Assembly: GCF_036370855.1 (NCBI RefSeq)
Contig: NC_088128.1
Span: 356,899 to 420,898, forward strand
Reading direction: 5' to 3'
Source: Dromaius novaehollandiae
Taxonomy: Eukaryota
DNA: 64,000 nucleotides
Shown: positions 38,338 through 61,273 of the stretch, in pieces
How the letters are laid out: the number at the start of each line of letters is the position of its first letter
Position numbering within the stretch: the stretch's first letter is position 1
Notes under the pieces: generated by a model
What the model was told of the DNA's origin: nothing
Database searches by the model: none
What the model saw: only the letters and a program-made list of their open reading frames with translations
Made by a program: the position numbers and the translations under genes

Positions 38338-38461
38338 CGGGCCCCTCGAAGAGCCACTCGTCGCCGGCCACCACGCGGGTGCCGTCATCGGCCTCGAAGT
38401 CGAGCAGGGCGCGGAGGCGCAGCGCCGTGTCGGCCGGCAGCACCCGCAGCGGCGTCACGTC
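38338..38461 (-). CDS. MVP: MVP coding exon c3: [41 protein letters not shown](G)
   Basis: Acceptor ccccgcag|GAC. Donor CCG|gtaggc. Matches human '[42 protein letters not shown]'. Confidence 0.9.
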
Positions 38462-38499
38462 CTGCGGGGACACGGGGGGACGCGGGTGACGCCGGGCAC

Positions 38500-39960
38500 G
38501 GGGGGACATCGGGGGACGCGGGGGGACGCCGGGGACGGGGGACATTGGGGGATGTGGGGGGACACGGGGTGACACCAATGGGGTGACGTTGAGGGATGCA
38601 GGGATGCGTGGGGATGTGTGGGGACACCAGGGATGGAGGTGACACCAGGGGACATGGGGGGACACCAGGGATGAGGTGACACCAGGGGACACATGAGGAT
38701 GGTGGGTGACACCAAGGATGGAGGTGGCACCAGGAGACATGGGGGGACACCAGGGATGGAGGTGACACCAGGGGACATGGGGGGACACCAGGGATGAGGT
38801 GACACCAGGGGACACATGAGGATGGTGGGTGACACCAAGGATGGAGGTGGCACCAGGAGACATGGGGGGACACCAGGGATGGAGGTGACACCAGGAGACA
38901 TGGGGGGACACCGGGGATGGAGGTGACATCAAGGGACACACGGGGACGGTGGGTGACACCAGGGATGGAGGTGACACCAGGAGACATGGGGGGACACTGG
39001 GGATGGAGGTGACATCAAGGGACACACGGGGACGGTGGGTGACACCAGGGATGGAGGTGACACCAGGGGATATGGGGGGACACCAGGGATGGGGGGCGAC
39101 ACCAGGGATGGGGTGACATTGAGGGATGCAGGGATGCGTGGGGACGTGTGGGGACACCAGGGATGGAGGTGACACCAGGGGACATGGGGGGACACCGGGG
39201 ATGGGGGGCGACACCAGGGATGGGGTGACATTGAGGGATGCAGGGATGCGTGGGGACGTGTGGGGACACCAGGGATGGAGGTGACACCAGGGGATATGGG
39301 GGGACACCAGGGATGGGGGGCGACACCAGGGATGGGGTGACATTGAGGGATGCAGGGATGCGTGGGGACGTGTGGGGACACCAGGGATGGAGGTGACACC
39401 AGGGGACATGGGGGGGACATCAGGGATGGGGTGACATCAAGGGACACATGGGGACATGGGGGGACATCAGGGATGGAGATGACACCAGGGGACATGGGGT
39501 GACACCCTGGGGACATCGGGTGATGCCAGGGATGGGATGACATCAGGGGATGCAGGGACGCATGGGGACACGGGGGGACACCAGGCATGGGGGTGACACC
39601 AGGGAACATGGGGGGACACCAGGGATGGGGTGACATCAAGGGACACATGGGGACGGTGGTTGACACCAGGGATGGAGGTGACACCAGGGGACATGGGGGG
39701 ACACCGGGGATGGGGTGACATCAAGGGACGCATGGAGACATGGGGGTGACGCCAGGGATGGAGATGACACCAGGGGACACGGGGGGACACCAGGGGACAC
39801 AGTGGGACACCAGGGATGGGGTGACATCAAGGGACACATGGGGACAGCTGCGGTGACACCAGGGAGGGAGATGACACCAGGGGACACTGGGTGACACCCT
39901 GAGGACATCGAGTGACCCCAGGGATGGAGGTGACACCAGGGGACACCGGGTGACGCCCTG
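38500..39960. repeat. About 60-bp minisatellite (GGACACCAGGGATGGAGGTGACACCAGGGGACATGGGG) in an MVP intron
   Basis: Direct reading of the sequence. Confidence 0.9.
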
Positions 39961-40399
39961 AGCACCTATAGTAACCCAGAACTACCTAGAAGACCCCAGA
40001 GCCCCTATAGAGACCGTATAGAAACCATGACACTTTTATGAACCTTATAGAAAACCACGTGGAGACAACGTGCCCTATGGGCAACTCCAGACGTGCCATG
40101 GACCCTATAGGACCCATAAGACACTACGGGGTGCCCAGAAGAGCTATAGGGGACAACAGGACCTGGAGAAGCTATAGGAGCCCGGGGGGGGCTAGAGGGG
40201 CCATAGGGGCCCATAGGGGCTATGGGGCACCACGGAAGGTAACACGGGCAATAAGAATCGACAAGACCTATAGATCCTATAGGAGCGTTAAGAAACCACA
40301 GGCCCAAAAAGAGGTTATAGGGGCCATAGTTGGCTATAGGTGCTTGGGAAAACGATGAGCCCTATAGGGACTATAAGCGACAGGGCAAAGGGTGGCTAC

Positions 40400-43090
40400 A
40401 AGAACAACGAGCAGCCGCTGACCCTATAGGGACTATGGAAAAGCCCCTGCTGCAGAGCGGCTGAGGAGGTGGGGCTATAGGGGCCATGAAGGGCCCATAG
40501 GGGCCATGAGGGGACGCTGTAGGGGCTATAGGGGCTATAGGTACCTGCTGGAGCTGCTCGCCGGGGGAGAGGGGGAAGGGCTCCTGGGCCAGGCGCACCT
40601 CCAGGTCGCCGTGGCGCAGCCGCATAGGGGCTATAGGGACCACAAAGGGGCCATAGGGACCAGAAGAAGTGCTATAGGGGCCATAGGGGCTATAGGTACC
40701 TGCTGGAGCTGCTCGCCGGGGGAGAGGGGGAAGGGCTCCTGGGCCAGGCGCACCTCCAGGTCACCAGGGCGCAACCGCATAGGGGCTATAGGGACCACGA
40801 AGGGGCCATAGGGACCAGAAGAAGTGCTATAGGGGCCACAGGGGCTATAGGTACCTGCTGGAGCTGCTCGCCGGGGGAGAGGGGGAAGGGCTCCTGGGCC
40901 AGGCGCACCTCCAGGTCACCAGGGCGCAGCCGCATAGGGGCTATAGGGACCACAAAGGGGCCATAGGGACCAGAAGAAGTGCTATAGGGGCCATAGGGGC
41001 TATAGGTACCTGCTGGAGCTGCTCGCCGGGGGAGAGGGGGAAGGGCTCCTGGGCCAGGCGCACCTCCAGGTCACCAGGGCACAGCCGCATAGGGGCTATA
41101 GGGATCATGTGGGTGCCATAGGGACTGCGGGGGGAGGCTATAGGGGCCATAGGGGCTATAGGTACCTGCTGGAGCTGCTCGCCGGGGGAGAGGGGGAAGG
41201 GCTCCTGGGCCAGGCGCACCTCCAGGTCACCAGGGCGCAGCCGCATAGGGGCTATAGGGACCACAAAGGGGCCATAGGGACCAGAAGAAGTGCTATAGGG
41301 GCCATAGGGGCTATAGGTACCTGCTGGAGCTGCTCGCCGGGGGAGAGGGGGAAGGGCTCCTGGGCCAGGCGCACCTCGAGGTCACCGTGGCGCAGCCGCA
41401 TAGGGGCTATAGGGACCACGAAGGGGCCGTAGGGACCAGAAGAAGCGCTATAGGTGCTATAGGGGCTATAGGTACCTGCTGGAGCTGCTCGCCGGGGGAG
41501 AGGGGGAAGGGCTCCTGGGCCAGGTGCACCTCCAGGTCACCAGGGCACAGCCGCATAGGGGCTATAGGGACCACGAAGGGGCCGTAGGGACCAGAAGAAG
41601 TGCTATAGGTGCTATAGGGGCTATAGGTACCTGCTGGAGCTGCTCGCCGGGGGAGAGGGGGAAGGGCTCCTGGGCCAGGCGCACCTCCAGGTCACCAGGG
41701 CGCAGCCGCGTAGGGGCTATAGGGACCACGAAGGGGCCATAGGGACCAGAAGAAGTGCTATAGGTGCTATAGGGGCTATAGGTACCTGCTGGAGCTGCTC
41801 GCCGGGGTAGAGGGGGAAGGGCTCCTGGGCCAGGCGCACCTCCAGGCCGCCGTGGCGCAGCCGCATAGGGGCTATAGGGACCACGAAGGGGCCGTAGGGA
41901 CCAGAAGAAGTGCTATAGGGGCCATAGGGGCTATAGGTACCTGCTGGAGCTGCTCGCCGGGGGAGAGGGGGAAGGGCTCCTGGGCCAGGCGCACCTCGAG
42001 GTCACCGTGGCGCAGCCGCATAGGGGCTATAGGGACCACGAAGGGACCATAGGGACCAGAAGAAGTGCTATAGGGGCCATAGGGGCTATAGGTACCTGCT
42101 GGAGCTGCTCGCCGGGGTAGAGGGGGAAGGGCTCCTGGGCCAGGCGCACCTCCAGGTCACCGTGGCGCAGCCGCATAGGGGCTATAGGGACCACGAAGGG
42201 GCCGTAGGGACCAGAAGAAGTGCTATAGGTGCTATAGGGGCTATAGGTACCTGCTGGAGCTGCTCGCCGGGGTAGAGGGGGAAGGGCTCCTGGGCCAGGC
42301 GCACCTCCAGGTCACCAGGGCGCAGCCGCATAGGGGCTATAGGGACCACGAAGGGGCCATAGGGACCAGAAGAAGCGCTATAGGTGCTATAGGGGCTATA
42401 GGTACCTGCTGGAGCTGCTCGCCGGGGGAGAGGGGGAAGGGCTCCTGGGCCAGGCGCACCTCGAGGTCACCGTGGCGCAGCCGCATAGGGGCTATAGGGA
42501 CCACGAAGGGGCCATAGGGACCAGAAGAAGCGCTATAGGTGCTATAGGGGCTATAGGTACCTGCTGGAGCTGCTCGCCGGGAGAGAGGGGGAAGGGCTCC
42601 TGGGCCAGGCACACCTCCAGGTCACCGTGGCGCAGCCGCATAGGGGCTATAGGGACCACGAAGGGGCCATAGGGGACCAGAAGAAGTGCTATAGGGGCCA
42701 CAGGAGCTATAGGTACCTGCTGGAGCTGCTCGCCGGGGGAGAGGGGGAAGGGCTCCTGGGCCAGGCGCACCTCCAGGTCACCGTGGCGCAGCCGCATAGG
42801 GGCTATAGGGACCACGAAGGGGCCGTAGGGACCAGAAGAAGCGCTATAGGTGCTATAGGGGCTATAGGTACCTGCTGGAGCTGCTCGCCGGGGTAGAGGG
42901 GGAAGGGCTCCTGGGCCAGGCGCACCTCGAGGTCACCGTGGCGCAGCCGCATAGGGGCTATAGGGACCACGAAGGGGCCATAGGGACCAGAAGAAGTGCT
43001 ATAGGGGCCATAGGGGCTATAGGTACCTGCTGGAGCTGCTCGCCGGGGTAGAGGGGGAAGGGCTCCTGGGCCAGGCGCACCTCGAGGTCA
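40400..43090. repeat. 135-bp tandem array of about 19 copies in the MVP intron downstream of exon c2. Each unit is the last 85 or so nt of exon c2 ([26 protein letters not shown]) plus the CAGCAG|gtacct donor plus about 50 nt of intron.
   Basis: Unit 'gggctataggtacctgctggagctgctcgccgggggagagggggaagggctcctgggccaggcgcacctccaggtcaccgtggcgcagccgcatagg...'. The authentic exon is at 43027-43222. Confidence 0.9.
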
Positions 43091-43222
43091 CCGTGGCGCA
43101 GCCGGGCCTGGCCGGCGCCGTCGAGCAGCGTCTCCCCGCCGGGCGCCCGGGCGGCCGGGTGCAGCACCACGCAGTAGTGCCGCGCCGGCACCGTCACCAT
43201 GCGCGCCGGCGCGAACACCACC
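43027..43222 (-). CDS. MVP: MVP coding exon c2: (R)[65 protein letters not shown]
   Basis: Acceptor ctatag|G (the repeat motif ctatag serves as the 3' splice site). Donor CAGCAG|gtacct. Matches human '[20 protein letters not shown]...[28 protein letters not shown]'. Confidence 0.85.
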
Positions 43223-43229: not shown

Positions 43230-45800
43230 GGGGTGCTCTATAGGGTCCCGGCGACGGCCCCCGGGCCTCTGGGGAGCACGCCGAGCCCCCCCGGCACCCC
43301 CCGGGGCCCTATAGAGCCCCCACGGCCCTATAGAGCCCCCCAGTACCCCCCACACCGTATGAGCCCCTATGGCCCTATAGGGTCCTCCAGCACCCCCCAC
43401 ACTCCACAGAGCCCCCAGCACCCCCTAGGAACCTGTAGAGGCCCCACGGCCCTATAGAGCCCCCCAGCACCCCCCACACCTACAGAGCCCCCATGGCTCT
43501 ATAGGGTCCTCCAGCACCCCCCACACCCTATAGAGCCCCCATGGCTCTACAGGATCCTCCAGCACCCCCCACACCCTATAGAGCCCTCATGGTCCTATAG
43601 GGTCGCCCAGCACCCCCCACACCCTATAGAGCCCCCAGCACCCCCTATGGGCCTATAGAGACCCCCAGCACCCCTTGGGGCCCTATAGAGCCTCCATAGA
43701 CATATAAAGCCCCCAGCACCCCTACGGCCCTGTAGAGTTCTCCAGCACCCCTATGCACCCTATAGAGCCCCCAGCACCCCCCTAGGGACCTATAGAGCCC
43801 CCCAGCACCCTCCCACGCCCTATAGAGCCCTCATGGTCCTATAGGGTCCCCCAGCACCCCCTACGGCCCTGTAGAGCCCCCATGGTCCTATAGGGTCCCC
43901 CAGCACCCCCCACACCCTATAGAGCCCCCAGCACCCCCTACAGCCCTATAAAGCACGTAGCACCCCCTATGGATCTATAGAGCCTCCCAGCACCCCCTAT
44001 GGACCTGTAGAGCCTCCCAGCACCCCCCACACCCTACAAAGGCCCCAGCACCCCCTAAGGACCTATGAAGCGCCCAGCACACTCCCAGGCCCTATAGAGC
44101 TCTCATGGCCCTATAGAGCCCCCAGCACTCCCTATAGACATATAGAGCATCCCAGCACCCCCTGGAGCCCGATAGAGCCCCCACGGCCCTATAGAGCCCC
44201 CAGAACCCCCTATGGACATACAGAGCGTCCCAGCACCCCCTGAGGCCCTATAGAGCCTCCCAGCACCTCCTATGGACCTATAGAGCCCCCAGCACCCCCC
44301 ACGGACCTGTAGAGCCCCCCAGCACCCCCCACACCCTACAAAGCCCCCAGCACCCCCTATGGGCCTATAGAGCCTCCCAGCACCCCCTGGGGCCCTATAG
44401 AGCCCCCATGGACCCATAGAGCCCCCCATACCCTCTAGGGACCTATAGAGCCCCCCAGCACCCTCCCAGGCCCTATAGAACCCCCACAGCTTTACAGGGC
44501 CCCCAGCACCCGCTAGGGACCTGTAGAGCCCCCCAGCACCCCCCAGGGCCCTATAGAGCCCTCACAACCCTATAGGGCCCCCAGCACCCCCTATGGCCCT
44601 GTAGAGCCCTCCAGCACCCTCCCAGGGCCCTATAGAGCCCCCCACAGTTCTATAAGGCCCCCACCACTCCCTATGGACCTATAGAGCCCCCCAGCACCCC
44701 ACACCCTATAGAGCCTCCACAGCCCTATAGGGCCCCCAGCACCCCCATATGGACCTGTAGAGCCCCCCAGCACCCTCAACACCCTACAGAGCCCCCAGCA
44801 CCCCCTAGGGACCTATAGAGCCTCCCAGCATCCCCCGGGGCCCTATAGAGCCCCCACGGCCCTGCAGAGCCCCCCAGCACCCCCTACACCCTATAGAGCC
44901 CCCAGGACCCCCTATGGACCTATAGAGCTCCCCAGCACCCCTCGGGGCCCTATAGAGCCCCCACAGCCCCCCAGCACCCCCCACCCCCTATAGAGCCCCC
45001 AACACTCTCCTGGCCCTATACAGGCCCTACAGAGCCCCCTAGCACCCCCCATGGCCCTATAGAGCCCCCACAGCCCTACAGGCCCCCCAACAACTCCTAT
45101 AGCCCTACAGAGCCCCCCTAACACCCTCCAGGCTCTATAGGGACCCCACAGGCCTATACAGCCCTCAACACCTCCCACGGCCCTACAGAGCCCCCCAGCA
45201 CCCCCTACGGCCCTATAGAGCCCCCATGACCCTATAGGGTCCCCAACACCCCCCATGGCCCAATAGAGCCCCCACAGCCCTATAGAGACCCCACTCCCCC
45301 ATAGAGACCCCAACCCCCTCCTGGGCCCTATAGGGACCCCACAGCTCCATAGAGCTCCCCAACACCCCCCACAGCCCTATAGGGTGGCCACGGCCCTATA
45401 GAGCCCCCTCGGCCCCACAGAGCCCCCAACCCCCCCCAATGGCATCCCCACAGCCCTATAGAGCCCTATAGGAGCCCCACAGCCCCAAAGAATCCCTTAA
45501 CACCCCCAAAACCCTATAGAAACCCCAAACTCCTATAGAAGTACCTTATCATTATATAGTGTTCTATAGGGCCTACCCTCAGCCCCATAGAGTCCTATAT
45601 GGCCTCCTACAGCCCCCCATGGCCCTATAGAGCCCCCTATAGGGTCCCCCACAGCCCCACAGAGACCTTGCGGACGTCAGCGGGGGGGGGAAACCACGCT
45701 ATAGACCCGGCCCCCCTGTCCCCTATAGGCCTCCCTGTCCCCTATAGACCTCCCCCGTGTCCTAGAGACCTCCCCGTGCCCCATAGCCCCGCCCCGTGCC
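43230..45800. repeat. About 40-bp minisatellite (CCCTATAGAGCCCCCAGCACCCCC) in the MVP intron between c1 and c2
   Basis: Direct reading. The 'ctatag' motif is shared with arrays at 29130-30800, 40400-43090 and 53400-55500. Confidence 0.9.
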
Positions 45801-45999: not shown

Positions 46000-48900
46000 A
46001 CTATGGGGCGGAGGAGGGCGCCGTGGGGCGGAGGAGGCTGCCGTGGGGCGGGGGGGGGGGGTCACGGGGTGGGGGGCAGAACGTCTCCCGAGGGCCACGT
46101 GGACTCACTGGGCGATGGAGGAGCTCATCGTGGGGGCGGGTGAGGTCATCACTGGGGCGGGTGAGGTCACCGTGGGGCGGGCGAGGTCACTGTGGGGCAG
46201 AGGAGGCCGCCGTGGGGCAGATGAGGTCACCGTGGGGCAGATGATGTCAGCAGGCAGCAGATGAGGTCACTAGGGAGCAAAACACCTCATCAGGAGACAC
46301 ATGGACCCACCATGGGCCACAGGAGCCATCTGGGGGGCAGAGGAGCTCGCTATGGGGCAGAGGAGGTCACTGTGGGGCAGAGGAGATCGCTATGGGGCAG
46401 ATGAGGTCACCGTGGGGCAGATGATGTCAGCAGGCAGCAGATGAGGTCACTAGGGAGCAAAACATCTCATCAGGAGACACATGGACCCACCATGGGCCAC
46501 AGGAGCCATCTGGGGGGCAGAGGAGCTCGCTATGGGGCAGAGGAGGTCACTGTGGGGCAGAGGAGATCGCTATGGGGCAGATGAGGTCACCGTGGGGCAG
46601 ATGATGTCAGCAAGCAGCAGATGAGGTCACTAGGGAGCAAAACATCTCATCAGGAGACACATGGACCTACCATGGGCCACAGGAGCTATCTGGGGGGCAG
46701 AGGAGCTCGCTATGGGGCAGAGAAGGTCGCTATGGGGCAGATGAGGTCACCGTGGGGCAGATGATGTCAGCAGGCAGCAGATGAGGTCACTGGGGGACAA
46801 AACATCTCATCAGGAGACACATGGACCCACCATGGGCCACAAGAGCCGTCTGGGGGGCAGAGGAGCTCGCTATGGGGCAGAGGAGGTCACTGTGGGGCAG
46901 AGGAGGTCACCGTGGGGCAGATGATGTCAGCAGGCAGCAGATGAGGTCACTGGGGGACAAAACATCTCATCAGGAGACACATGGACCCACCATGGGCCAC
47001 AAGAGCCGTCTGGGGGGCAGGTGAGCTCACTATGGGGCAGAGGAGGCCACCGTGGGGCAGAGGAGCTTGCCGTGGGGCAGGAGAGCTCACTGTGGGGCAG
47101 GAGACCTTGCTGGGGGGGCAGAAGAGCTCGCTGTGGGGCAGACGAGGTCATCTGGGGACAAAACATCTTGTTGGGGGGCACAAGATGGGGGGTAGAAGAG
47201 CTCGCTGTGGGGCAGAAGATCTCACCATGGGGCAGGAGACCCTGACATGGAGCAGAAGAGCTCGCTGTGGGGCAGAAGAGCTCATCATGGAGGCAGATGG
47301 CCTTGCCATGGGGCAGATGAGCTCGCCGTGGGGCAGGAGACCCTGATGTGGGGCAGAGGAGCTTGCCGTGGGGCAGATGAGCTCGCTGTGGGGCAGGAGA
47401 CCCTGATGTGGGGCAGAAGAGCTCGCTGTGGGGCAGATGAGCTCGCCATAGGGCAGATGAACTCATCATGGAGGCAGATGGCCTCGCCGTGGGGCAGGAG
47501 AGCTCCCTAGGGGCAGATGAGCTTGCTGTGGGGCAGGACACCTTGCTGTGGGGCAGGAAATGTCACCGTGGGGCAGATGAGCTGGCCATGGGGCAGATCC
47601 CCCTCACCGTGGGACAGAGGGGCTTGCCGTCGGGCAGGAGAACGCACCGTGGGGCAGCAGACCTCGCCATGGGGCAGACTGGCTCCCTGTGGGGCAGATC
47701 CTCCTCACCGTGGGGCAGACCCACTTCGCTATGGGGCAGATTTGCTTGCCATGGGGCAGACCCCCTTTGCGGTGGGGCAGATCCGTCTTTCCATGGGGCA
47801 GATGGGCTCACCGGAGGGCAGACCCCCCTCACCGTGGGGCAGATCTCCTCGCCATGGGGTGGATCCCCCTCGCTATGGGGCAGATTTGCTCCCCGTGGGG
47901 CAGATCCCCTTCACCGTGGGGCAGGAGGCCTCACCATGGGGCTGATCCCCCTCACCATGGGGCAGATTTGCTCCCTGTGGGGCAGGAGGCCTCACTGGGG
48001 GGCAGATCCCCCTCGCCGTGGGGCAGGAGGCCTCGCCGTGGGGCAGATGCAGCTGCCATGGGGCAGGAGGCCTGGTCGTGGGGCAGATTTGCTCCCCATG
48101 GGGCGGATCCCCCTCACCGTGGGGCAGATTTGCTCCCCATGGGGCAGAAGGCCTCGCCATGGGGCAGATCCCCCTCGCCATGGGGCAGACCCCCCTCGCC
48201 GTGGGGCAGATTGGCTCCCCGTGGGGCAGACTGGCTCCCCGTGGGGCAGACCCCCCTCACCATGGGGCAGACCCCCCCTCGCCATGGGGCAGACCCCCCT
48301 CGCCGTGGGGCAGATTGGCTCCCCGTGGGGCAGACCCCCTCGCCATGGGGCAGACCCCCCTCGCCGTGGGGCAGATTGGCTCCCCGTGGGGCAGACTGGC
48401 TCCCCGTGGGGCAGACCCCCCTCGCCATGGGGCAGACCCCCCTCGCTGTGGGGCAGACTGGCTCCCCGTGGGGCAGACCCCCCCCTCGCTGTGGGGCAGA
48501 CTGGCTCCCCGTGGGGCAGACCCCCCTCGCCGTGGGGCAGACTGGCTCCCTGTGGGGCAGACCCCCCTCGCCATGGGGCAGACCCCCCCTCGCCGTGGGG
48601 CAGACTGGCTCCCCGTGGGGCAGACGCCCTCACCATGGGGCAGACCCCCCCTCGCCGTGGGGCAGACCCCCCTCGCCGTGGGGCAGATTGGCTCCCCGTG
48701 GGGCAGATCCCCCTCGCCGTGGGGCAGATTGGCTCACGAGGGAGGGGCAGGAGGCCTCGCCATGGGGCAGAGGCAGCTGCTGTGGGGCAGGAGGCCTCGC
48801 TGTGGGGCAGATGCAGCTGCCGTGGGGCAGGAGGCCTGGCCGTGGGGCAGATTTGCTCCCCATGGGGCGGATCCCCCTCGCCGTGGGGCAGATTTGCTCC

Positions 48901-49860
48901 CCATGGGGCAGAAGGCCTCACCATGGGGCAGATCCCCCTCGCCATGGGGCAGACCCCCCTCGCCGTGGGGCAGACTGGCTCCCCGTGGGGCAGACCCCCC
49001 CTCGCCGTGGGGCAGATTTGCTCCCCGTGGGGCAGAAGGCCTCGCCATGGGGCAGACCCCCCTCGCCATGGGGCAGACCCCCCTCGCTGTGGGGCAGATT
49101 GGCTCCCCGTGGGGCAGACCCCCCTCGCCATGGGGCAGACCCCCCTCGCCGTGGGGCAGACTGGCTCCCCGTGGGGCAGACCCCCTCGCCATGGGGCAGA
49201 CCCCCCTCGCCGTGGGGCAGACTGGCTCCCTGTGGGGCAGAAGGCCTCACCATGGGGCGGATCCCCCTCGCCATGGGGCAGACCCCCCTCACCGTGGGGC
49301 AGACTGGCTCCCCGTGGGGCAGACCCCCCTTGCCGTGGGGCAGACCCCCCTCACCGTGGGGCAGACTGGCTCCCCGTGGGGCAGACCCCCCTCGCCGTGG
49401 GGCAGACTGGCTCCCCATGGGGCAGACCCCCCTCACCGTGGGGCAGATTGGCTCCCCGTGGGGCAGATCCCCCTCGCCATGGGGCAGACCCCCCTCGCCG
49501 TGGGGCAGACTGGCTCCCCGTGGGGCAGAAGGCCTCACCATGGGGCAGACCCCCCTCGCCATGGGGCAGACCCCCCTCGCCGTGGGGCAGATTGGCTCCC
49601 CGTGGGGCAGACCCCCTCGCCATGGGGCAGACCCCCCTCGCCGTGGGGCAGATTGGCTCACCAGGGAGGGGCAGGAGGCCTCGCCGGGGGGGGGGCAGCT
49701 CCCCTCGCCGTGGGGCAGCCGCAGCCGCCGGGGGGGCAGGAGGCCTGGTTGGGGGGCAGCTCCCCTCGCCGTGGGGCAGGAGGCCTGGTTGGGGGGCAGC
49801 TCCCCTCGCCGTGGGGCAGGAGGCCTGGTTGGGGGGGGGGGGGGGCAGCTCCGGCCCCGG
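46000..49860. repeat. About 21-bp minisatellites upstream of MVP: (GGGGCAGAGGAGCTCGCTATG)n, then (CCCCCTCGCCGTGGGGCAGACTGGCTCCCCGTGGGGCAGA)n
   Basis: Direct reading. These give the 886-, 900- and 758-aa artefactual ORFs. Confidence 0.9.
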
Positions 49861-49999
49861 GGGCGGAAGCGGCGTCGCAGCCCTTTGCCCTGGCCCCGCC
49901 CCCCGCCGCGCCCGGCCCCGCCCCCATCGCGCCCGGCCCCGCCCCCGCCGCCCGGCCACGCCCCCGGCCACGCCCCCCGGGGCAGGACCAACCCCCCCC

Positions 50000-52900
50000 C
50001 CCCCTCACCCCCCTCCCCGCGGATTTATCCCCCCCCGCGGATTTATTCCCCCCCCCCGGGGATTTATTCAACCCCCCCAGGGGTTTACTTCCCCCCCCCG
50101 GGTTTATTCACCCCCCCGGGTTATTTAACCCCCCCGGGGATTTATTCACCCCCCCAGGGGTTTATTCCCCCCCCCAGGTTTATTTACCCCCCCAGGGGAT
50201 TTATTCACCCCCCCCGGGTTTATTCACCCCCCAGGTTTATTTCCCCCCCCAGGTTTATTTACCCCCCCGGGTTTCCCCCCCCCGGGTTATTTAACCCCCC
50301 CCGGGGATTTATTCACCCCCCCAGGGGTTTATTTCCCTCCCCGGGTTTATTTACCCTCCCCGGGTTTATTCACCCCCTCCGGGTTATTTAACCCCCCCGG
50401 GGATTTATTTACCCCCCCCGGGTTTATTTACCCCCCCCGGGGATTTATTCACCCCCCCAGGGGTTTATTTCCCCCCCGGGTTTATTTACCCTCCCCGGGT
50501 TTATTCACCCCCTCCGGGTTATTTAACCCCCCCGGGGATTTATTTACCCCCCCCGGGGATTTATTCACCCCCCCCGGGGATTTATTCACCCCCCCCGGGG
50601 TTTATTCCCCCCCCCGGGTTTATTTACCCCCCCCGGGTTTATTTACCCCCCCCGGGTTTATTCACCCCCTCCGGGTTATTTAACCCCCCCGGGGATTTAT
50701 TCACCCCCCCCGGGGTTTATTCCCCCCCCCGGGTTTATTCACCCCCCCCCGGGTTTATTCACCCCCCCCCGGGTTTATTCACCCCCTCCGGGTTATTTAA
50801 CCCCCCCGGGGATTTATTCACCCCCCCCGGGTTTATTCACCCCCCCCCGGGTTTATTCACCCCCCCCGGGTTTATTTACCCCCCCCGGGTTTATTCACCC
50901 CCTCCGGGTTATTCACCCCCCCCCGGCGATTTATTCACCCCCCCCGGGGTTTATTCACCCCCCCCGGGTTTATTTACCCCCCCCGGGTTTATTCACCCCC
51001 TCCGGGTTATTTAACCCCCCCGGGGATTTATTCACCCCCCCCGGGGTTTATTCCCCCCCCCGGGTTTATTCACCCCCCCCGGGTTTATTCACCCCCCCCG
51101 GGTTTATTTACCTCCCCCGGGTTTATTCGCCCCCCCCGGGTTATTTAACCCCCCCGGGGATTTATTCACCCCCCCAGGGGTTTATTCACCCCCCCCCGGG
51201 TTTATTTACCCCCCCCGGGTTTATTCACCCCCTCCGGGTTATTTAACCCCCCCGGGGATTTATTCACCCCCCCCGGGGTTTATTCCCCCCCCCGGGTTTA
51301 TTCACCCCCCCCCGGGTTTATTCACCCCCTCCGGGTTATTTAACCCCCCGGGGATTTATTCACCCCCCCCGGGTTTATTCACCCCCCCCGGGTTTATTCA
51401 CCCCCCCCGGGTTTATTTACCCCCCCCGGGTTTATTCACCCCCTCCGGGTTATTCACCCCCCCCCGGCGATTTATTCACCCCCCCCGGGGTTTATTCACC
51501 CCCCCCGGGTTTATTTACCCCCCCCGGGTTTATTCACCCCCTCCGGGTTATTTAACCCCCCCGGGGATTTATTCACCCCCCCCCGGGGTTTATTCCCCCC
51601 CCCGGGTTTATTCACCCCCCCCGGGTTTATTCACCCCCCCCGGGTTTATTTACCTCCCCCGGGTTTATTCGCCCCCCCCGGGTTATTTAACCCCCCCGGG
51701 GATTTATTCACCCCCCCAGGGGTTTATTCACCCCCCCCGGGTTTATTTACCCCCCCCGGGTTTATTCACCCCCTCCGGGTTATTTAACCCCCCCCGGGGA
51801 TTTATTCACCCCCCCAGGGGTTGATTCCCCCCCCAGGTTTATTTACCCCCCCGGGTTTATTCACCCCCTCTGGGTTATTTACCCCCCCGGGGATTTATTC
51901 ACCCCCCCCAGGGGTTTATTCCCCCCCCCAGGTTTATTTACCCCCCCAGGGGATTTATTCACCCCCCCAGGGGTTTATTCACCCCCCCGGGTTTATTTAC
52001 CCCCCCGGGTTTATTCACCCCCTCCGGGTTATTTAACCCCCCCCGGGGATTTATTCACCCCCCCAGGGGTTGATTTCCCCCCCCGGGTTTATTTACCCCC
52101 TCCGGGTTATTTAACCCCCCCCCCGGGGATTTATTCCCCCCCCTGGTTATTTAACACCCCCCAGGGATTTATTTCCCCCCCCGGGGGGTTATTCCCGCCC
52201 CCCCGGGTTTATTCACCCCCCCCGGGGATTTATCCCCCCCCCAGGTGGGTTATTTCCCCCCCTGGGATTTATCCCCCCCCCAGTTCATTAACCCCCCCGA
52301 GGCGGGTTATTTCCCCCCCCCGGGTGTTTATTCGCCCCCCGGGTGTTATCGCCCCCCCCCGCGTTATTCACACCCCCCAAGTTTATTTACCCCCCCAGGG
52401 GGGTTATTCGCCCCCGCCTGGGTTTATTCCCCCCCCGGGGTTATTCACCCCCCCCAGGGGATTTATTTCCCCCCCCGGGTTTATTCACCCCCTCCGGGTT
52501 ATTTAACCCCCCCCGGGGATTTATTCACCCCCCCAGGGGTTTATTTTCCCCCCCAGGTTTATTCACCCCCCCAGGGGGTTTATTCCCCCCCCGGGTTTAT
52601 TCGCCCCCCCCCGGGTTATTTAACCCCCCCGGGGATTTATTCCCCCCCCCGGGTTATTTAACACCCCCCAGGGATTTATTTCCCCCCCGGGGGGGTTATT
52701 CCCGCCCCGGGGTTTATTCACCCCCCCCGGAGTTATTCCCCCCCCCGGGTTTATTCACCCCCCCCGGGGATTTATCCCCCCCCCAGGTGGGTTATTTCCC
52801 CCCCGAGGTTTATCCCCCCCTGGGTTCATTAACCCCCCCCGAGGCGGGTTATTTCCCCCCCCCGGGTGTTTATTTGCCCCCCCGGGTGTTATCGCCCCCC

Positions 52901-53380
52901 CCCGCGTTATTCACACCCCCCAAGTTTATTTACCCCCCCAGGGGGGTTATTCGCCCCCCCCCCGGGTTTATTCCCCCCCCGGGTTTATTCCCCCCCCGGG
53001 GTTATTCACCCCCCCCAGGGGATTTATTCCCCCCCCCCGGGTTTATTCACCCCCTCCGGGTTATTTAACCCCCCCCGGGGATTTATTCACCCCCCCAGGG
53101 GTTTATTTCCCCCCCCAGGTTTATTTACCCCCCCGGGTTTATTCACCCCCTCCGGGTTATTTAACCCCCCCGGGGATTTATTCACACCCCCCCCGGGTTT
53201 ATTCACCCCCCCCAGGTTTATTTACCCCCCCCGGGGTTATTCACCCCCCCAGGGGATTTATTTCCCCCCCCCGGGTTTATTTGCCCCCCCGGGTTTATTT
53301 CCCCCCCCCGGGTGTTTATTCGCCCCCCCGGGTGTTATTGCCCCCCCCCGGGGTTATTCACCCCCCCCCCCCCGGGCGGC
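50000..53380. repeat. About 19-20-bp minisatellite (CCCCCCGGGTTTATTCA)n of about 170 copies. Every unit carries AATAAA on the minus strand.
   Basis: Direct reading. GGGTTTATT(C/T)A units. The reverse complement is TGAATAAACCC. Confidence 0.9.
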
Positions 53381-53399
53381 TCCCGGCGCCGCGGGGCAG

Positions 53400-55500
53400 A
53401 ACCGGAGCCGGCCCCGCCCGGGGGGGAGGGGCCCTATGGGGGCCATAGGGGCCGGGGGGGGGGCCATAGGGACTGGGGGGGCAGTGGGGGGGCTATAGCG
53501 GCTGGAGGACGGTGCGGGAGGGCTATAAGGGATGGGGAGGGGGGCGGTGGGGGGGCTATAGGGGCTGGAGGCTGGGGGCAGCTATAGGGGCCTGAGGGGG
53601 AAGGGAGGGGCTGTATGGGGGCCATAGGGGCTGGGGGGGGAGCAAGGGGGGCCATAGGGACCAAGGGGTGCCTGGGGGGCTATAGGGACCTGGGGGGGGG
53701 AGAGGACAGTATGGGGGCCATAGGGGCTGGGGGGGCTATAGAGGCCAAGGGTTGGCAGGGGGGCTATAAGGGCCAGGGAGGGGGGTGGTGGGGTCTATAG
53801 GGGCCAGGGACCAGTGGAGGGGGGGCTATAGCAGCTGGGGGGGGACAGTATGGGGGCTATAGGGACCAGGCAGGGACGGTATGGGCGTTATAGGGCCTGG
53901 GTGGGGGCGGTGGGGGGGGCTATAGGGCCCAGGGAGGGGAGGAGGGCAGTGGGGGGGGGGGCTATAGGGGCCGGAGGATGGCTTGGGGGGGGGCTATAGT
54001 GGCCAGGCGGGGGAGGGGGGCAGTGGGGGGGGCTATAGGGGCTGGAGGATGGCAGGGAGGCTATAGGGGCGGGGGGGGAGACAGTGTGGGGGCTGTAGGG
54101 GCTGGGGGGAGGGGCTATAGGGGCTGGAAAGGGCAGGGAGGAGGGTATGGGGGGCTATAGGGCCCAAAGGGGGGTGCTGTGGGGGTGGGGAAGGGGGTAT
54201 GGGGGCTATAGAGGCCGTGGGGGTGGGGAGGACAGTATGGGGACTATGGAGGTCGGGGTGGCAGTGGGGGAGGGGGGCATGGGGGCTGTAGGGGCCATGG
54301 GGGGGCTGAGGGGATGAGGAGAGAGGTATAGGGGCTATAGGTGCAGGGAGGGCCTGTGGGGGGGAGGAGGGGGGTATGGGGGCTATAGAGCCTGAGGAGG
54401 AGGGATATGGGGGGGTATGGGGGCTATAGGGGCAAAGGGGGGAGATGTGGGGGTGGGGAGGGTGGTATGAGGGCTATAGGAGGCAAGGGGGGGGCCTGTG
54501 TGGTTGGGGAGGTATGGCAGCTATAGGGACTGTGTGGGGGCTATGGGGGTGGGGGAGGGGGCATGGGCGCTATAGGGGCCAAGGGGGGAGATGTGGGGAT
54601 TGGGAGGGGGGTATGGGGACTATAGGGGCTGGGGGGGGGTTGTATGGGGGCTATGCAGGCTGGGGGGGGGGCTGTGGGAGTGGGGTGGGGTATATGAGGC
54701 TTTAGGGGCCCGGGGAGGGGCTGTAGGGGTGCGGAGGGGGGTGTAGGAGCTATAGGGCCCAAGAGGGGGAAATGTGGGTCTGGGGAGGGGGTTATAGGGG
54801 CCATGGGGTCAATAGGGGCCGAGGGGGGGGCTAGGAGGGTGGCAAGGGGGGTATGGGGGCTATAAGGGCCGGGGGGGGGCTATGAGGGTGACAAGGGGGT
54901 TATGGGGGCCATAGGGGCCAAGGGGGGGGCTAAGAGGGTGGCAGGGGGGGTATGGGGGCTATAGGGGCCAAGGAGGGGGCTCTGAGGGTGGAGTATGGAG
55001 CTATAGGGGCCAAGGAGGGGGCTAGAAAGGTGGTGAGGGGAGTATAGGCTCTATAGGGGCTGGGGGGGGCTATGAGGGTGACAAGGGGGTTATGGGGGCC
55101 ATAGGGGCCAAGGGGGGGCTAGGAGGGTGGCGAGGGGGGTATGGGGGCTATAGGGGCCAAGGAGGGGGCTCTGAGGGTGGAGTATGGGGCTATAGGGGCC
55201 AAGGAGGGGCTAGGAGGGTGGCGAAGGGGGTATGGGGGCTATAGGGGCCGAGGAGGGGGCTCTGAGGGTGGAGTATGGGGCTATAGGGGCCAAGGAGGGG
55301 CTAGGAGGGTGGCGAGGGGGGTATGGGGGCTATAGGGGCCGAGGGGGGGCTAGAAAGGTGGTGAGGGGGGTATAGGAACTATAGGGGCCAGGGGTGGCTA
55401 TAGGGCAGGGGACCTATAGGGGCCACAGGGCTGGGGGGGGCGGAACTATGGACCTATAGGGCCCATAGGGGCCCCAGGGCTGGGGGGGGCAGGAGCTACG
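53400..55500. repeat. G-rich roughly 60-bp minisatellite (GGGGGCTATAGGGGCC...)
   Basis: Direct reading of the sequence. Confidence 0.9.
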
Positions 55501-55739
55501 GCCCTATAGGGCCTATAGGTGCCCCAGGGCCGCGCCGGCCCCCCCCAGGCCCGTGAATCCCCTCAGGGCGGCGGCGCCGCTGGCGGCCATTTTCCCTCCC
55601 CCCCCCCGCCCACGTCTTCCCGCCTCGCCGTTGCTAGGCGACCGGCGCCGCCATTTTGCGCGCCCTGCCCGCCCCGGCGGCGCGCATGCGCCACGCGCCG
55701 CTCCTTTCCCCCCCCCCCTCCCCTCCGCACGCGGGCGCG

Positions 55740-55860
55740 GCGGCGCGCTGCCATTGGGCGGCGGGAGGGGCGGGGCGCGCTGCCATTGGGCGGCGGCGGC
55801 GCGGGGGGCGGGGCGGGGCGGCGGCGGGCGCCTCGTTCAAACGGTCGCGGCGGCGGCGCG
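55740..55860 (+). promoter_or_regulatory. KIF22: KIF22 core promoter with two inverted CCAAT boxes 32 bp apart and a CHR element, preceding a candidate ATG at 55861
   Basis: ccattgg at 55751-55757 and 55783-55789. TTCAAA (CHR, reverse of TTTGAA) at 55836-55841. NRF1 palindrome GCGCATGCGC at 55682-55691. 'gccattttg' YY1-like cores at 55586 and 55643. The gene sits in a CpG island. This is the canonical G2/M (NF-Y plus CHR) promoter architecture expected for a mitotic kinesin. Confidence 0.6.
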
Positions 55861-55949
55861 ATGGCGGCGGCAGGTCGCGGCGGCGGCGCCCGGGGGTGGG
55901 GGGGGGAAGACGGGGAGCGGGACGGGGGTGGCCCCGGGGGGGGGGGTGG

Positions 55950-56940
55950 CCCTGGGAGGGGACAAGCCCTGAGGGGACAAATGCTGGGGGGGGCGACGGG
56001 GGGGGGAACAACCCTTGGGGGGGGACAAGCCCTGGGGGGGGGGACAGCCCCGGAGGGGGGTCACAAGGGAGGGGACAAGCCCTGAGGGCGGGTGACAAGG
56101 AGGGGGACAAGTCCTGGGGGGAGGGGACAAGGAGGGGGAAGCCCCGGGTGGGGGGGACAAGCCCTGAGGGGGGAAAATGCCTTGGGGGGGGTGACAAGGG
56201 GGGTGACAAGCCCCAAAGGGGGGGACACAAGCCTTGGGGGGGTGACAAGGGAGGGGACAAGCGCTGAGGGGGGTGACAAGAGAGGGGACAAGCCCTGAGG
56301 GGGGTGACAAGGGGGAAGAAGCCCTGGGGGGGGAGACAAGCCCTGGGGGGGAGAACAAGCCCTGGGGGAGGGTGACAAGGGGGGGACAAGCCCTTGGGGG
56401 GGGACAAGCCCTGGGGGGGGACAAGGAGGGGGAAGCCCCGGGTGGGGGGGACAAGCCCTGAGGGGGGGGAAATGCCTTGGGGGGTTGGCAAGGGGGGTGA
56501 CACAAGCCTTGGGGGGGTGACAAGGGAGGGGACAAGCCCTGAGGGGGGTGGCAAGGGGGAAGAAGCTCTTGGGGGGGGGACAAGCCCTGGGGGAGGGTGA
56601 CAAGGGGGGGACAAGCTCTTGGGGGGGGGACCAGGTGGGGGGACAAGCCCCAAGGGGGAGTGACAACCCCTGAGAGGGGGACAAGGGAGGTGACAAGCCC
56701 TGAGGGGGGGGGACAGGCCTGAGGGGGGTGACAAGGCAGGTGACAAGCCCTGAGGGGGGGGACAGGCCTGAGGCGGGTGACAAGGCGGGTGACAAGCCCT
56801 GAGGGGGGTGACAAGGGAGGTGACAACCCCTGAGGGGGGGTGACAACCCCTGAGGGGGGGGTGACAACCCGAGGGGGGGTGACAAGCCCTGAGGGGGGGG
56901 ACAAGAGGGGGGACACCCCCAAGGGCCACACACCGGGGCT
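55950..56940. repeat. (GGGGACAAGCCCTGAGGGGGGTGACAAGGGAGG)n in KIF22 intron 1
   Basis: Direct reading of the sequence. Confidence 0.85.
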
Positions 56941-57012
56941 AACCGTGGGGGGGGGCTGTCACCCGCACCCACAGGCGACAGCACCCATGGGTGCCGGGGG
57001 CACCGGGTGCAG

Positions 57013-57119
57013 GTGTGCGTGCGGCTGCGGCCCGGCGCCGCCGGCGAGGAGCCCCGGGTGCTGCCCGTGGACGCCCGCACCCTCCGCCTCCTCCACGGCC
57101 CCGGCGCCACCGAGTACCG
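57013..57119 (+). CDS. KIF22: KIF22 coding exon (motor domain start): VCVRLRPGAAGEEPRVLPVDARTLRLLHGPGATEY(R)
   Basis: Acceptor gggtgcag|GTG at 57011-57012. Donor CG|gtaaaa at 57120. Matches human 'VRVAVRLRPF...' at the start of the kinesin motor domain. Confidence 0.75.
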
Positions 57120-57192
57120 GTAAAACAGGGTGACAAAGGCGCCGGGTGACACCCATGGGTGCCCCCCGCGTCACCCTTGTCGCCGGTTGTAG

Positions 57193-57320
57193 CTTCGACG
57201 CCGTCTACGGCCCCGGCGCCTCGCAGAGCGACGTCTACCTGGGCTCCGTGCGCCCGTTGTTGTCCCACCTGGCGCAGGGCCGCAACGTCACCGTCCTCGC
57301 CTACGGGCCCAGCGCCGCCG
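57193..57320 (+). CDS. KIF22: KIF22 coding exon: (R)FDAVYGPGASQSDVYLGSVRPLLSHLAQGRNVTVLAYGPSAA(G)
   Basis: Acceptor ttgtag|C. Donor G|gtgagt. Matches human '[43 protein letters not shown]' (first half of the P-loop). Confidence 0.85.
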
Positions 57321-57394
57321 GTGAGTCCCCCCCCCGCCGCACGACAGCACCCATGGGTGCCCCAGCACCCTGAGCACCCCGTTTGCGTCCCCAG

Positions 57395-57525
57395 GGAAGA
57401 CCTACACCATGCTGGGCAGCGCCGAGGAGCCGGGCGTCATCCCCCGGGCCGTGCGGGACCTGCTGGGGCTGGCGGGGCCCTGTGCCACTGTCACCGCGTC
57501 CTACCTGGAGATCTACCAGGAGCGG
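57395..57525 (+). CDS. KIF22: KIF22 coding exon: (G)[43 protein letters not shown]
   Basis: Acceptor gtccccag|GG. Donor CGG|gtgagg. Matches human '[24 protein letters not shown]...SYLEIYQEK' (P-loop GKT). Confidence 0.85.
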
Positions 57526-57589
57526 GTGAGGCGGGGGCACCCATGGGTGCTGCGCGGCGGGGGGTGCCACCACCCACCCTTTCTTTCCC

Positions 57590-59040
57590 ACCCAAATCTG
57601 GGTGTTTTTGCCTCAGGGTGACGCCCAGCGGGTGCCACCTCCCCGTCAGCCATTTTGTCCTCCTCAAATCTGGGTGTTTTCACCTCAGGTTGACGCCCAG
57701 TGGGTGCTGCCACCCATCACCCTTCGTTTCCCACCCAAATCTGGATATTTTTGCTTCAGGGTGCCACCCAGCGGGTGCCACCGCCCCATCAGCCATTTTG
57801 TCCCCTCAAAGCTGGGTGTTTTTACCTCAGGGTGACGCCCAGCGGGTGCCACCACCCCGTCAGCCATTTTGTTTCGCTCAAATCTGGGTGTTTTCACTTC
57901 AGGGTGACGCCCAGTGGGTGTTACCACCCCATCAGCCATTTTGTCTCCTCAGATCTGAGTGTTTTTGTCTCAGGGTGACACCCAGTTGGTGCCACCACCC
58001 TGTCAGCCATTTTGTCCCCCTTAAATCTGGGTGTTTTTACCTCAGGACGACACCCAGTGGGTGCTGCCACCCATCACCCTTCGTTTCCCCCCAAATCCAG
58101 GCTGTTTTCACCTCAGAGTGACACCCAGTGGGTGCCACCACCCTGTCAGCCATTTTGTCCCCCCAAATCTGTGCTTTTTCCACCCCGTCAGCCATTTTGT
58201 CCCCCTCAAATCTAGGTGTTTTCATCTCAGGGTGACACCCAGTGGGTGCTGCCACCCATCACCCTTCGTTTCCCATTTGAATCTGGGTGTTTTCACCTCA
58301 GGGTGACGCCCAGCGGGTGCCACCACCCTGTCAGCCATTTTGTCCCCCTCAAATCTGGGTGTTTTTACCTCAGGGTGACACCCAGCAGGTGCCACCACCC
58401 CATCAGCCATTTTGTCCCCCCAACCCGCACGTTTTCCACCCCGTCGGCCATTTTGTCCCCCCAAATCTGTGCGTTTTCCACCCTATCGGCCATTTTGTCC
58501 CCCAAACCCACACGTTTTCCACCCCGTCGGCCATTTTGTCCCCCAAACCTGTGTGTTTTCACCCCATCAGCCATTTTGTCCCCCAAACCCACACGTTTTC
58601 CACCCTGTCAGCCATTTTGTCCCCCAAATCCGTGCTTTTTCCACCCTGTCGGCCATTTTGTCCCCCAAACCTGCGCATTTTCCACCCCGTCGGCCATTTT
58701 GTCCCCCAAACCTGCGCATTTTCCACCCCGTCAGCCATTTTGTCCCCCCAACCCGCACGTTTTCCACCCCGTTGGCCATTTTGTCCCCCAAACCCACATG
58801 TTTTCCACCCTGTCAGCCATTGTGTCCCCCCAAACCCGTGCGTTTCTGCCCCGGGTGACCCCACAGCAGGTGCCACCATCTTGTCAGCCATTTTGTCCCC
58901 CAAATCCGTGCTTTTTCCACCCTGTCAACCATTTTGTCCCCCCAACCCGTGCGTTTTCCACCCCATCAGCCATTTGTCCCCCCAACCCACACGTTTTCCA
59001 CCCTGTCGGCCATTTTGTCCCCCAAACCCGCGCGTTCCCA
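57590..59040. repeat. About 59/118-bp minisatellite in KIF22 intron 4. Units carry CAGCCATTTTGTCC (YY1-like core) and acceptor-like TGTTTTTACCTCAG|GGTGAC.
   Basis: Direct reading. About 12 copies of 'atctgggtgtttt(t/c)acctcagggtgacgcccag'. Later copies read 'ccgtcggccattttgtcccccaaacc'. Confidence 0.9.
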
Positions 59041-59072
59041 CCCCGGCTGACCCCGTCCCCCACCCCGCGCAG

Positions 59073-59688: not shown

Positions 59689-59689
59689 G

Positions 59690-60560: not shown

Positions 60561-60600
60561 GGGACATTGGGGTCCCCTCACCCCCTCGCTCCCTCCGCAG

Positions 60601-60634
60601 GTGCCGCTGACGTCCCCGACACCCCGCAGGCCGG
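60601..60634 (+). CDS. KIF22: KIF22 small coding exon: (G)AADVPDTPQA(G)
   Basis: Acceptor ccctccgcag|GTG. Donor GG|gtaggc. Phase links exon 5 (phase 1) to the next exon. Weak conservation. Confidence 0.45.
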
Positions 60635-61273
60635 GTAGGCACCCATGGGTGGGGGGCCTGGGGGGTCCCCGGGGTGTCCCCAGGGTGCCCGAGGGGGGTT
60701 CCTAGGGTGGCACAGGGCCCCCAGAGTGTCCTCGAGGGTCCCTAGAGTGTCACAGGGTCCCCAGGGTGCTCCGGGGGGGTCCCTAGGGTGGCACAGGGTC
60801 CCCAGGGCGTCCCAGGGTGCTCTGGGGGGTCTCTAGGGTGTCAGAGGGTCCCCAGGGTGTCCCAGGGTGCCCTGGGGGGTCCCTAGGGTGGCAGAGGATC
60901 CCTGGGGGGGTCCCTAGGGTGGCGCAGGGTCCCCAGGGTGTCCCAGGGTGCCCTGGGGGGTCCCTAGGGTGGCAGAGGACCCCTGGGGGGGTCCCTAGGG
61001 TGGCGCAGGGTCCCCAGGGTGTCCCCATGGTGCCGGGGGGGGTCCCCAGGGTGTCCCCAGGATGCCCGGGGGGTCCCTAGGGTGTCCTGGGGTCTCTGGG
61101 GTGTCCCCAGGGTGCCTGGGGTGTTCTCTAGGGTGGCACGGGGTGCCCGGGGGGGTCCTGGGGGGTCCCTAGGGTGTCCTGGGGTCCCCGGGGTGCTTTG
61201 GGGGGTCCCTAGGGTGGCACAGGGTGCCCTGGGAGGTCCCCGGCTAACGGGTGCCCCCCCGCCGTGTCCCCAG

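Follow-up and report, generated by a model that had tools for sequence, protein, structure and literature searches.

The stretch of DNA analysed here, 64,000 nucleotides of emu (Dromaius novaehollandiae) contig NC_088128.1 in RefSeq assembly GCF_036370855.1 and called the window below, carries MVP, the gene for the major vault protein, on its minus strand, with TLCD3B adjoining it on the plus strand. Within MVP intron 2, the 3′ end of coding exon 2 is repeated many times over, each time with its 5′ splice site (donor) and the first part of the intron. All coordinates are window positions. Sixteen MVP coding exons were located from 45954 to about 14300, spanning human residues 3-851, by tblastn with a human MVP sequence as the query, and no in-frame stops were found inside the alignments of these 16 exons. 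The whole of exon 2 can be aligned with MVP of birds, turtle, and human (60% identity to the human protein over amino acids 37-107), and splicing of exons 2, 3, and 4 yields an open, homologous protein frame. The closest MVP proteins in the database are from birds, at 77-83% identity (tinamou, ibisbill, gull, and rail). TLCD3B is 90-91% identical to the proteins of falcon, crane, and skua, 82% identical to that of chicken, and 79% identical to that of zebra finch. With maxima of 83% for MVP and 91% for TLCD3B, these searches returned no near-identical transcript-derived protein for either gene.

A 155-bp tandem array at the exon 2 border of MVP

Tandem Repeats Finder (TRF) reports an array at 40471-43104, on the minus strand; its 17.0 copies have a period of 155, with 95% matches and 0% indels, and its score of 4637 exceeds that of every other array in the 64-kb window. 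A preliminary description of this stretch had placed a large tandem array at the same position, composed of copies of the exon 2 3′ end, the donor, and the proximal intron in the correct orientation, and had read the encoded peptide correctly; all of this holds, but the dimensions required revision and the array proved more regular than described. The unit is 155 bp long (156 bp in two cases) instead of 135 bp, the array has 17 units, one authentic and 16 decoys, instead of about 19, and the exon contributes 78 nt to each unit, followed by 77 nt of proximal intron 2, instead of about 85 nt. The units stand head-to-tail in MVP sense orientation, and every copy lies downstream of the authentic donor. 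Their exon-derived part encodes a peptide ending in (Y/S)PGEQLQQ, is 92-100% identical to the real exon 2 in the decoy units, and terminates exactly at the exon 2 border. The intron part is composed of 9-10-bp CCCCTATRG motifs, and consecutive units meet at the junction CCCCTATG|CGGCTGCGCC. The array has a GC content of 66%, and in its consensus each CAG|GT is preceded, at a distance of 19-36 nt, by a run of pyrimidines, CCCTTCCCCCTCTCCCCC. The divergent parts are the intron section of unit 13 and the tail of unit 17, the latter leading into sequence that resembles the ancestral proximal intron. The 155-bp units are confined to exon 2 and intron 2, with none elsewhere in the window; the remainder of intron 2 consists of about 0.5 kb of less repetitive sequence and a purely intronic minisatellite at 39954-38466.

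The splice site is copied with the exon tail. CAGCAG|GTACCT follows the tail in every unit, as had been proposed, and the 16-mer CAGCAG|GTACCTATAG is unchanged in all 17, so that the many correctly oriented decoy donors seen downstream of the real one amount to 16 exact copies. CAGCAG|GT occurs 17 times on the minus strand at a spacing of 155 nt (156 nt twice); the only additional CAGCAG in the region, at 40452 (CAGCAGGG), lies outside the array. The real donor had been put at 43027, which is the last exon base (plus-strand numbering), the donor G being its neighbor (Table 1). Two of the variants that had been listed are present in the array, Tyr to Ser (TAC to TCC) and His to Pro (CAC to CCT). 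A third, CAG|GCCGC, occurs in none of the units, and the impression that some copies had lost the GT fits the TLCD3B array, where 7 of 11 copies lack it, and not the MVP array. Absence of GT from most copies had been named as grounds for abandoning the description; on re-inspection GT is intact in 17/17 units.

Table 1. Exon-border features of MVP and TLCD3B in the window, and MVP intron 2 at orthologous loci.
Feature	Position	Strand	Length	Details
MVP coding exon 2	43027..43222	(-)	196 nt	Encodes (R)+65 residues; acceptor cgctatag|G
Authentic MVP 5′ splice site	43021..43029	(-)		CAG|GTACCT, from sequence
Authentic MVP donor G	43026	(-)		Last exon base 43027
MVP intron 2	38462..43026	(-)	4,565 nt	
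MVP coding exon 3	38338..38461	(-)	124 nt	41 residues+(G); acceptor tccccgcag|G
MVP array unit 1	42950..43104	(-)		Real exon tail 43104-43027 (78 nt) + first 77 nt of intron 2
MVP array units 2-17	40468..42949	(-)		16 intronic copies: exon tail + donor + proximal intron
Decoy donor G, units 2-9	42871, 42716, 42560, 42405, 42250, 42095, 41940, 41785	(-)		
Decoy donor G, units 10-17	41630, 41475, 41320, 41165, 41009, 40854, 40699, 40544	(-)		
TLCD3B donor-side array	9064-10730	(+)		Exon end 9063; real donor GTGAGT at 9064
MVP exon 12 acceptor-side array	20098-20546	(-)		Real acceptor at about 20098
Box turtle MVP intron 2			76 bp	No exon-tail copies
Sunbittern MVP intron 2			~630 bp	No exon-tail copies
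Rail MVP intron 2			684 bp	No exon-tail copies
Gull MVP intron 2			698 bp	No exon-tail copies; gap-free locus, 3.2-Mb contig
Ibisbill (Ibidorhyncha) MVP intron 2			709 bp	No exon-tail copies

In chicken, sequence stuttering and its exon stuttering subtype were recently defined by Hron et al. (2026, Genome Biol Evol, PMC12954441; bioRxiv 10.1101/2025.09.16.676548, September 2025), stuttering being the local intronic expansion of blocks of tens to hundreds of bases. The MVP array is very probably an exon-stuttering minisatellite, that is, an amplified segment of the exon 2/intron 2 border. A 155-bp segment lying over this border, with 78 exon nucleotides, the donor, and 77 intron nucleotides, would have been duplicated in tandem, after which unequal exchange, gene conversion, or replication slippage would have raised the number of units to 17. 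The setting would be a GC-rich, repeat-saturated bird region, dense in G-quadruplex (G4) motifs, in which nearly every intron has such arrays. Unit 1 is continuous with the rest of exon 2, so that the coding sequence is intact; the 16 intronic units would evolve free of coding and splice-site constraint, although sequence would still pass between them and unit 1.

Variation among units and among species

All 17 MVP units are distinct, with a maximum pairwise identity of 99.4% and a mean of 95.3% for units 1-16. An assembly artefact, in which misassembly of repetitive reads expanded one border or a short duplication into 17 units, is conceivable since the array is known from one assembly, dot-chromosome repeats are hard to sequence, and a short-read tinamou assembly has a gap at the same place. 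We nevertheless consider this very improbable, as the units differ by structured, shared variants, two of them are 156 bp long, and one has a divergent intron part. The window is also free of N, an array of 2.6 kb is shorter than typical long reads, and raw nanopore reads confirmed stutter arrays of this kind in chicken (PMC12954441).

Identity between units is flat with distance, at 95.8-96.8% for lags of one to eight units, and a higher-order repeat structure, sought over the same lags, was not found. Units 7, 8, and 12, none of them adjacent to unit 1, are 99% identical to it. In a four-gamete test, exon column 56 (Tyr/Ser) showed all four allele combinations with each of columns 11, 12, 15, and 21, a pattern that indicates exchange between units or recurrent mutation. 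With increasing unit number, the exon part shows a weak loss of identity to the real exon (Spearman -0.57, P = 0.02). The fourteen units of exactly 155 nt differ at 19 of 155 columns; the exon part accounts for 11 of these (out of 78) and the intron part for 8 (out of 77). Codon positions 1 or 2 hold 7 of the 11 in the exon part. Under random placement, an invariant 9-nt donor window has a P of about 0.3; for the longest invariant run, 36 nt spanning the donor, P is 0.11. Selection on the decoy donors was therefore rejected as evidence of function, this invariance being compatible with chance. Because donor invariance is within chance and the exon part is as variable as the intron part, there is no sign of selection on the decoy coding sequence or on the decoy donors.

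Unit 1 stands apart in two codons. It keeps a conserved Tyr, found also in human, turtle, and four of the five other bird loci (tinamou has His), where 12 of the 16 decoys have Ser, and it keeps the CTC Leu codon common to the neoavian loci, which most decoys have changed. These differences are consistent with purifying selection acting on unit 1 only. The real exon tail appears to exchange sequence with the intronic copies, most of which carry Tyr to Ser or His to Pro, and it is plausible that stuttering could feed amino-acid changes into dot-chromosome genes through such exon-tail exchange.

In the gull Chroicocephalus ridibundus, a “major vault protein-like” locus (L002 11085-17677) ends at about human residue 483, and no further MVP exons were found in the 10 kb after this end. 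Its product has many Arg to Trp, Cys, or His changes, a pattern suggesting CpG decay, and the locus is probably a truncated pseudogene copy and not a functional orthologue. Together with the extensive gene loss reported for dot chromosomes (PMC12954441), this locus is what could be cited for the view that emu MVP is itself being lost and that its array reflects relaxed selection on a pseudogene. That view is hardly credible for a gene whose 16 coding exons (human amino acids 3-851) align without in-frame stops, whose exon 2-3-4 frame is open, and whose unit 1 retains the Tyr and the CTC Leu codon that most decoys have changed.

A comparison with other bird MVP loci, which the preliminary description had called for, found no exon copy in four neoavian loci and one in tinamou. 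A further search for MVP homologues yielded chiefly short fragments from non-birds and contributed only sunbittern and the turtle to this comparison. Intron 2 of turtle, sunbittern, rail, gull, and ibisbill is not visibly repetitive and is short next to the 4,565 bp of the emu window (Table 1). The donor CAG|GTACCT is also present in tinamou, Ibidorhyncha, gull, and rail, and is replaced by GTATCT in sunbittern and GTAACG in turtle. The first intron bases after the donor (TATAG/TGTAG) are conserved across birds as well, so the donor copied in the array is the ancestral one.

In the tinamou Nothoprocta perdicaria, a second, identical exon 2 tail starts 80 nt past the donor and enters a gap of 1,950 N (copies at 1064-1129 and 1210-1259 of locus L003). 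This duplication comprises 66 nt of exon and 80 nt of intron, with a period of 146, compared with 78 + 77 = 155 in the window, and the gap probably hides an array at the same border with different breakpoints. The exon 2 DNA of the window is 75% identical to that of tinamou and 76-81% identical to that of Neoaves. Since the breakpoints differ and the emu sequence is no closer to tinamou than to Neoaves, the tinamou copy is read as an independent event; a common origin of the two was judged unlikely on the same grounds, and the origin of the MVP array appears to be lineage-specific. The alternative, that duplication of the exon 2 tail predates the split between palaeognaths and neognaths and was lost in the sampled neoavians, would account for exon-tail copies after the same donor in tinamou and window, and for their shared CCCTATAG-type proximal and GGTGTCACCTCCATCCC-type distal intron motifs. 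It is nonetheless quite improbable given the different breakpoints and periods (66 + 80 versus 78 + 77), units about 95% alike when orthologous exon DNA of window and tinamou is 75% identical, the absence of a copy from four neoavian loci, and the finding that orthologous introns expand independently in related species (PMC12954441). A more speculative idea is that the exon 2 border is a recurrent hotspot, its independent involvement in tinamou and in the emu window being due to CTATAG-rich and G4-rich local sequence. The tail and donor of tinamou MVP exon 1 are also duplicated, with a period of 162 (L003 80-133 and 242-295).

Predicted consequences for splicing

The consensus of 5′ splice sites is CAG|GTAAGT, and CAG|GTACCT departs from it at +4 and +5, fitting at the other 7 of 9 positions. 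If exon 2 were extended to any of the decoys, an in-frame TAG would be reached 66 nt beyond the real donor, and each added unit contributes 155 nt, which is 2 modulo 3. A possible acceptor, TATAG|, precedes every exon-tail copy by 8 nt (n = 16, the first at 42958..42962 on the minus strand), in the context ...TCCCTATAG|CCCCTA(T/C)GCGG in 16/16 cases, and from there to the decoy donor each copy forms a potential pseudo-exon of 86 nt. Inclusion of one, two, or three of these pseudo-exons leads to a premature stop. Productive use of the decoys, with protein repeats as the outcome, was considered and set aside, as exon extension and one to three pseudo-exons all give stops. The gap from a donor to the next pseudo-acceptor is 69 nt, which is near the lower size limit for vertebrate introns and makes serial splicing of adjacent pseudo-exons unlikely.

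The authentic donor is presumably the one normally used, because it is the sole donor at a normal exon length (196 nt) from the exon 2 acceptor, as expected under exon definition. Occasional decoy transcripts would be removed by nonsense-mediated decay (NMD). Since any use of a decoy breaks the frame and decoy transcripts would be lost to NMD, the array is expected to be neutral or mildly deleterious, and it is probably a young minisatellite, neutral or slightly harmful, and not functional.

Several points weigh against this reading. The copy number of the array was taken from one assembly. We infer from sequence that the first of 17 donors is used, yet the decoys look as good as the real donor, having the same 9-mer and 78 nt of exon context, and their silence cannot be assumed. 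Nor do the pseudo-exons look clearly weaker than the real exon 2, whose acceptor (Table 1) has a poor pyrimidine tract and resembles the TATAG| pseudo-acceptors. Human genes seldom have a decoy that equals the authentic donor in strength within 150 nt, and those decoys that compete best are depleted even inside introns (Dawes et al. 2022, PMC8964760). This depletion of competitive decoys close to real donors argues that such sites are usually harmful. In light of it, a decoy that competes fully, placed at +155 and present 16 times, is out of the ordinary and may be costly.

The same observations can be turned toward a functional array, in which the decoys would serve as a sink or platform for the U1 small nuclear ribonucleoprotein, as an NMD switch tuning MVP, or as ratchet-like splice points. 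Stepwise splicing of this last kind is conceivable because exon 2 joined after a decoy CAG regenerates the same donor. A donor identical in 17 units together with 78 nt of exon context, a pseudo-acceptor in each unit, a pyrimidine run (CCCTTCCCCCTCTCCCCC) upstream of each CAG|GT, and the usual selection against competitive decoys near donors (PMC8964760) could all be brought forward for such roles. Donor invariance is however within chance (P about 0.3), with exon and intron parts equally variable; the array is absent from four neoavian loci and turtle and is not a conserved MVP feature; all tested outcomes are out of frame; and the older TLCD3B array has 7 of 11 donors decayed, as expected if the copies are unmaintained. 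Recursive splice sites place a pyrimidine tract and AG directly before a regenerated 5′ splice site, typically in very long introns. CAG|GTACCT would regenerate a donor, but the 12 nt immediately upstream are purine-rich with three competing AGs, the pyrimidine run stands back at 19-36 nt, and an intron of only 4.6 kb would seem too short to need recursive splicing. A functional decoy array is in our view an improbable explanation. It is likewise a long shot that the 16 decoy donors, each with its 78-nt exon context and TATAG pseudo-acceptor, are used in vivo and that array copy number sets the share of MVP pre-mRNA lost to unproductive splicing and NMD or removed stepwise by way of regenerated donors; if so, a hypervariable minisatellite would be a heritable dial on vault protein expression.

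Other exon-border arrays and relation to known systems

The MVP array had been presented as an isolated curiosity, apart from a smaller counterpart in TLCD3B; it is in fact one instance of a process affecting the whole region, for the window has three exon-border arrays, and tandem repeats make up 82% of it and 84% of the MVP span (TRF). The TLCD3B array is of the same kind, and the MVP array is the larger and more uniform of the two, as the preliminary description held. In TLCD3B, the exon tail and donor are followed by 11 further copies up to 10717, with a period of about 154, identities of 78-85%, and higher-order periods of 309 and 463 bp. The donors of these copies read GTGAGT in 4/11, ATGAGT in 6/11, and ACGAGT in 1/11. 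Diverged exon-tail copies are present in the orthologous intron of crane and swan (L007 12206-12751; L008 10955-11494), and the 458-bp falcon intron has none; this distribution implies that the TLCD3B stutter is either old or recurrent. The third array lies on the acceptor side of MVP exon 12, where five upstream copies of the intron tail and exon head (20186-20546) carry gtccccag|AACTYRAACCGGGTGATCTGCT..., with the AG intact in each. These copies read ccccag|AACT(C/T)(G/A)AACC... and would represent decoy 3′ splice sites. With TLCD3B affected on the donor side and MVP exon 12 on the acceptor side, both types of border are involved, as in the published description. Part of MVP exon 15 (15066-15257) is 70-72% similar to an array of 130-bp period in intron 14 (15300-15403 and 15878-15968), a similarity that may reflect an old, decayed exon stutter or shared GC-rich composition.

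The window has a GC content of 57-77%, no N at any position, and 3-5.5 G4 motifs per kb; within the MVP array, the template (+) strand has 19 canonical G4 motifs, whereas the sense strand lacks them. ALDOA and PPP4C adjoin TLCD3B in crane and falcon, and both genes appear in the supplementary text of Hron et al. on chicken dot chromosome 38 (PMC12954441). The window is probably from a dot microchromosome. In a zebra finch study, more than 70% of dot-chromosome intron sequence was tandem repeat.

Other features of the window were noted alongside. The top-scoring arrays often have periods of about 154-166 bp or near-multiples thereof (154, 155, 161, 165, 165, 310, 317, 325, 330, 463, and 498). 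Intron 1 of MVP (43288-45800), just upstream, consists of related CTATAG-containing motifs with a G/C skew opposite to that of the array, the skew flipping at exon 2. TLCD3B and MVP are arranged tail to tail, about 2 kb apart (12350-14300). In crane, swan, and falcon, the 10 kb that follow TLCD3B yielded no MVP exon, and the swan interval has a kinesin gene, probably KIF22; this could reflect a difference in gene order, loss of MVP, or assembly gaps. From 46000 to 64000 no gene was identified, 10 long open reading frames being without a Pfam match, and large arrays are present with periods of 19/38 bp (50015-53368) and 41 bp (47662-49652 and 58395-59045).

In chicken, exon stuttering affects 236 introns in 115 genes, 190 of the introns lying on dot chromosomes (PMC12954441). 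In some stutter blocks, a lateral stretch of the neighboring exon is included together with the donor or acceptor, “creating potential alternatively spliced transcripts”, so the possibility of such transcripts from exon copies had already been pointed out, and in more than 90% of cases the source is at most one base away from the border of the exon (PMC12954441). Copies number 1-44 (median 4), exon parts measure 20-187 bp (median 36), and the stutters span 112-23,555 bp (median 1,751); 95% of stuttered introns are length-polymorphic among chickens (PMC12954441). The copy number of the MVP array likewise probably varies among individuals. Two causes were proposed, replication stress at G4-bearing or GC-rich DNA with error-prone repair, and meiotic misalignment with gene conversion (PMC12954441). 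The G4 and GC context of the MVP array fits both and does not discriminate between them.

The emu case is of interest in several respects. It adds a well-resolved example of stuttering in a bird other than chicken, in a gene that, like TLCD3B, is not found in the Hron et al. supplementary text so far as that text was available (PMC12954441). It also constitutes a natural experiment, with 17 donors set at 155-nt intervals that have the same 9-mer and 78 nt of exon upstream, and of which the first alone is predicted to be productive. A few variants (exon-part columns 11/12, 21, and 56) suffice to distinguish the units. The array bears on how the vertebrate spliceosome picks among identical 5′ splice sites, by exon definition or by acceptor proximity, and on how much MVP expression the decoys cost.

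Among known systems, GC-rich minisatellites (variable number tandem repeats) share with the MVP array a head-to-tail, GC-rich arrangement, interspersed variants without higher-order periodicity, signs of exchange between units (here the identity matrix, the lag profile, and four site pairs), and a location in a region likely to be of high recombination. The MVP unit differs in being at the long end for such repeats, at 155 bp, and in being set by an exon-intron border instead of a short core motif. Competing duplicated 5′ splice sites, of which the classical duplicated-site minigene experiments are a case, are a second relative. The likeness here lies in identical tandem donors downstream of an authentic one, and the first MVP decoy, 155 nt away, falls in the 250-nt zone that holds 87% of human cryptic donors (PMC8964760). 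Human genes, in contrast, hold scattered, weak GT sites, whereas the MVP array is a natural 16-fold exact duplication with 78 nt of exon context. Tandem exon duplication also repeats exon-derived sequence and a donor inside a gene, but only 78 of the 196 nt of exon 2 are copied here, and the candidate pseudo-exons (86, 127, and 145 nt) include no multiple of 3. The 86-nt pseudo-exon frameshifts to a stop, leaving no route to a protein repeat.

Exon stuttering is the closest match. The MVP array is a local expansion of tandem blocks within one intron (17 × 155 bp in intron 2), the blocks contain the lateral part of the adjacent exon and its splice site with their source at the exon border, and coding exon 2 is intact. 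The GC-rich, repeat-saturated surroundings, the several arrays per gene, and the independent expansion in other birds are further likenesses. Besides occurring in a bird other than chicken, the MVP array lies above the published medians (16 copies versus 4, an exon part of 78 nt versus 36, and 2.6 kb versus 1.75 kb), and it is unusually regular, with 95% matches and no indels, compared with published repeats that are imperfect and within 20% edit distance of their consensus. The MVP array is thus not a new phenomenon; it is a clear example of exon stuttering, and among the cleaner ones.

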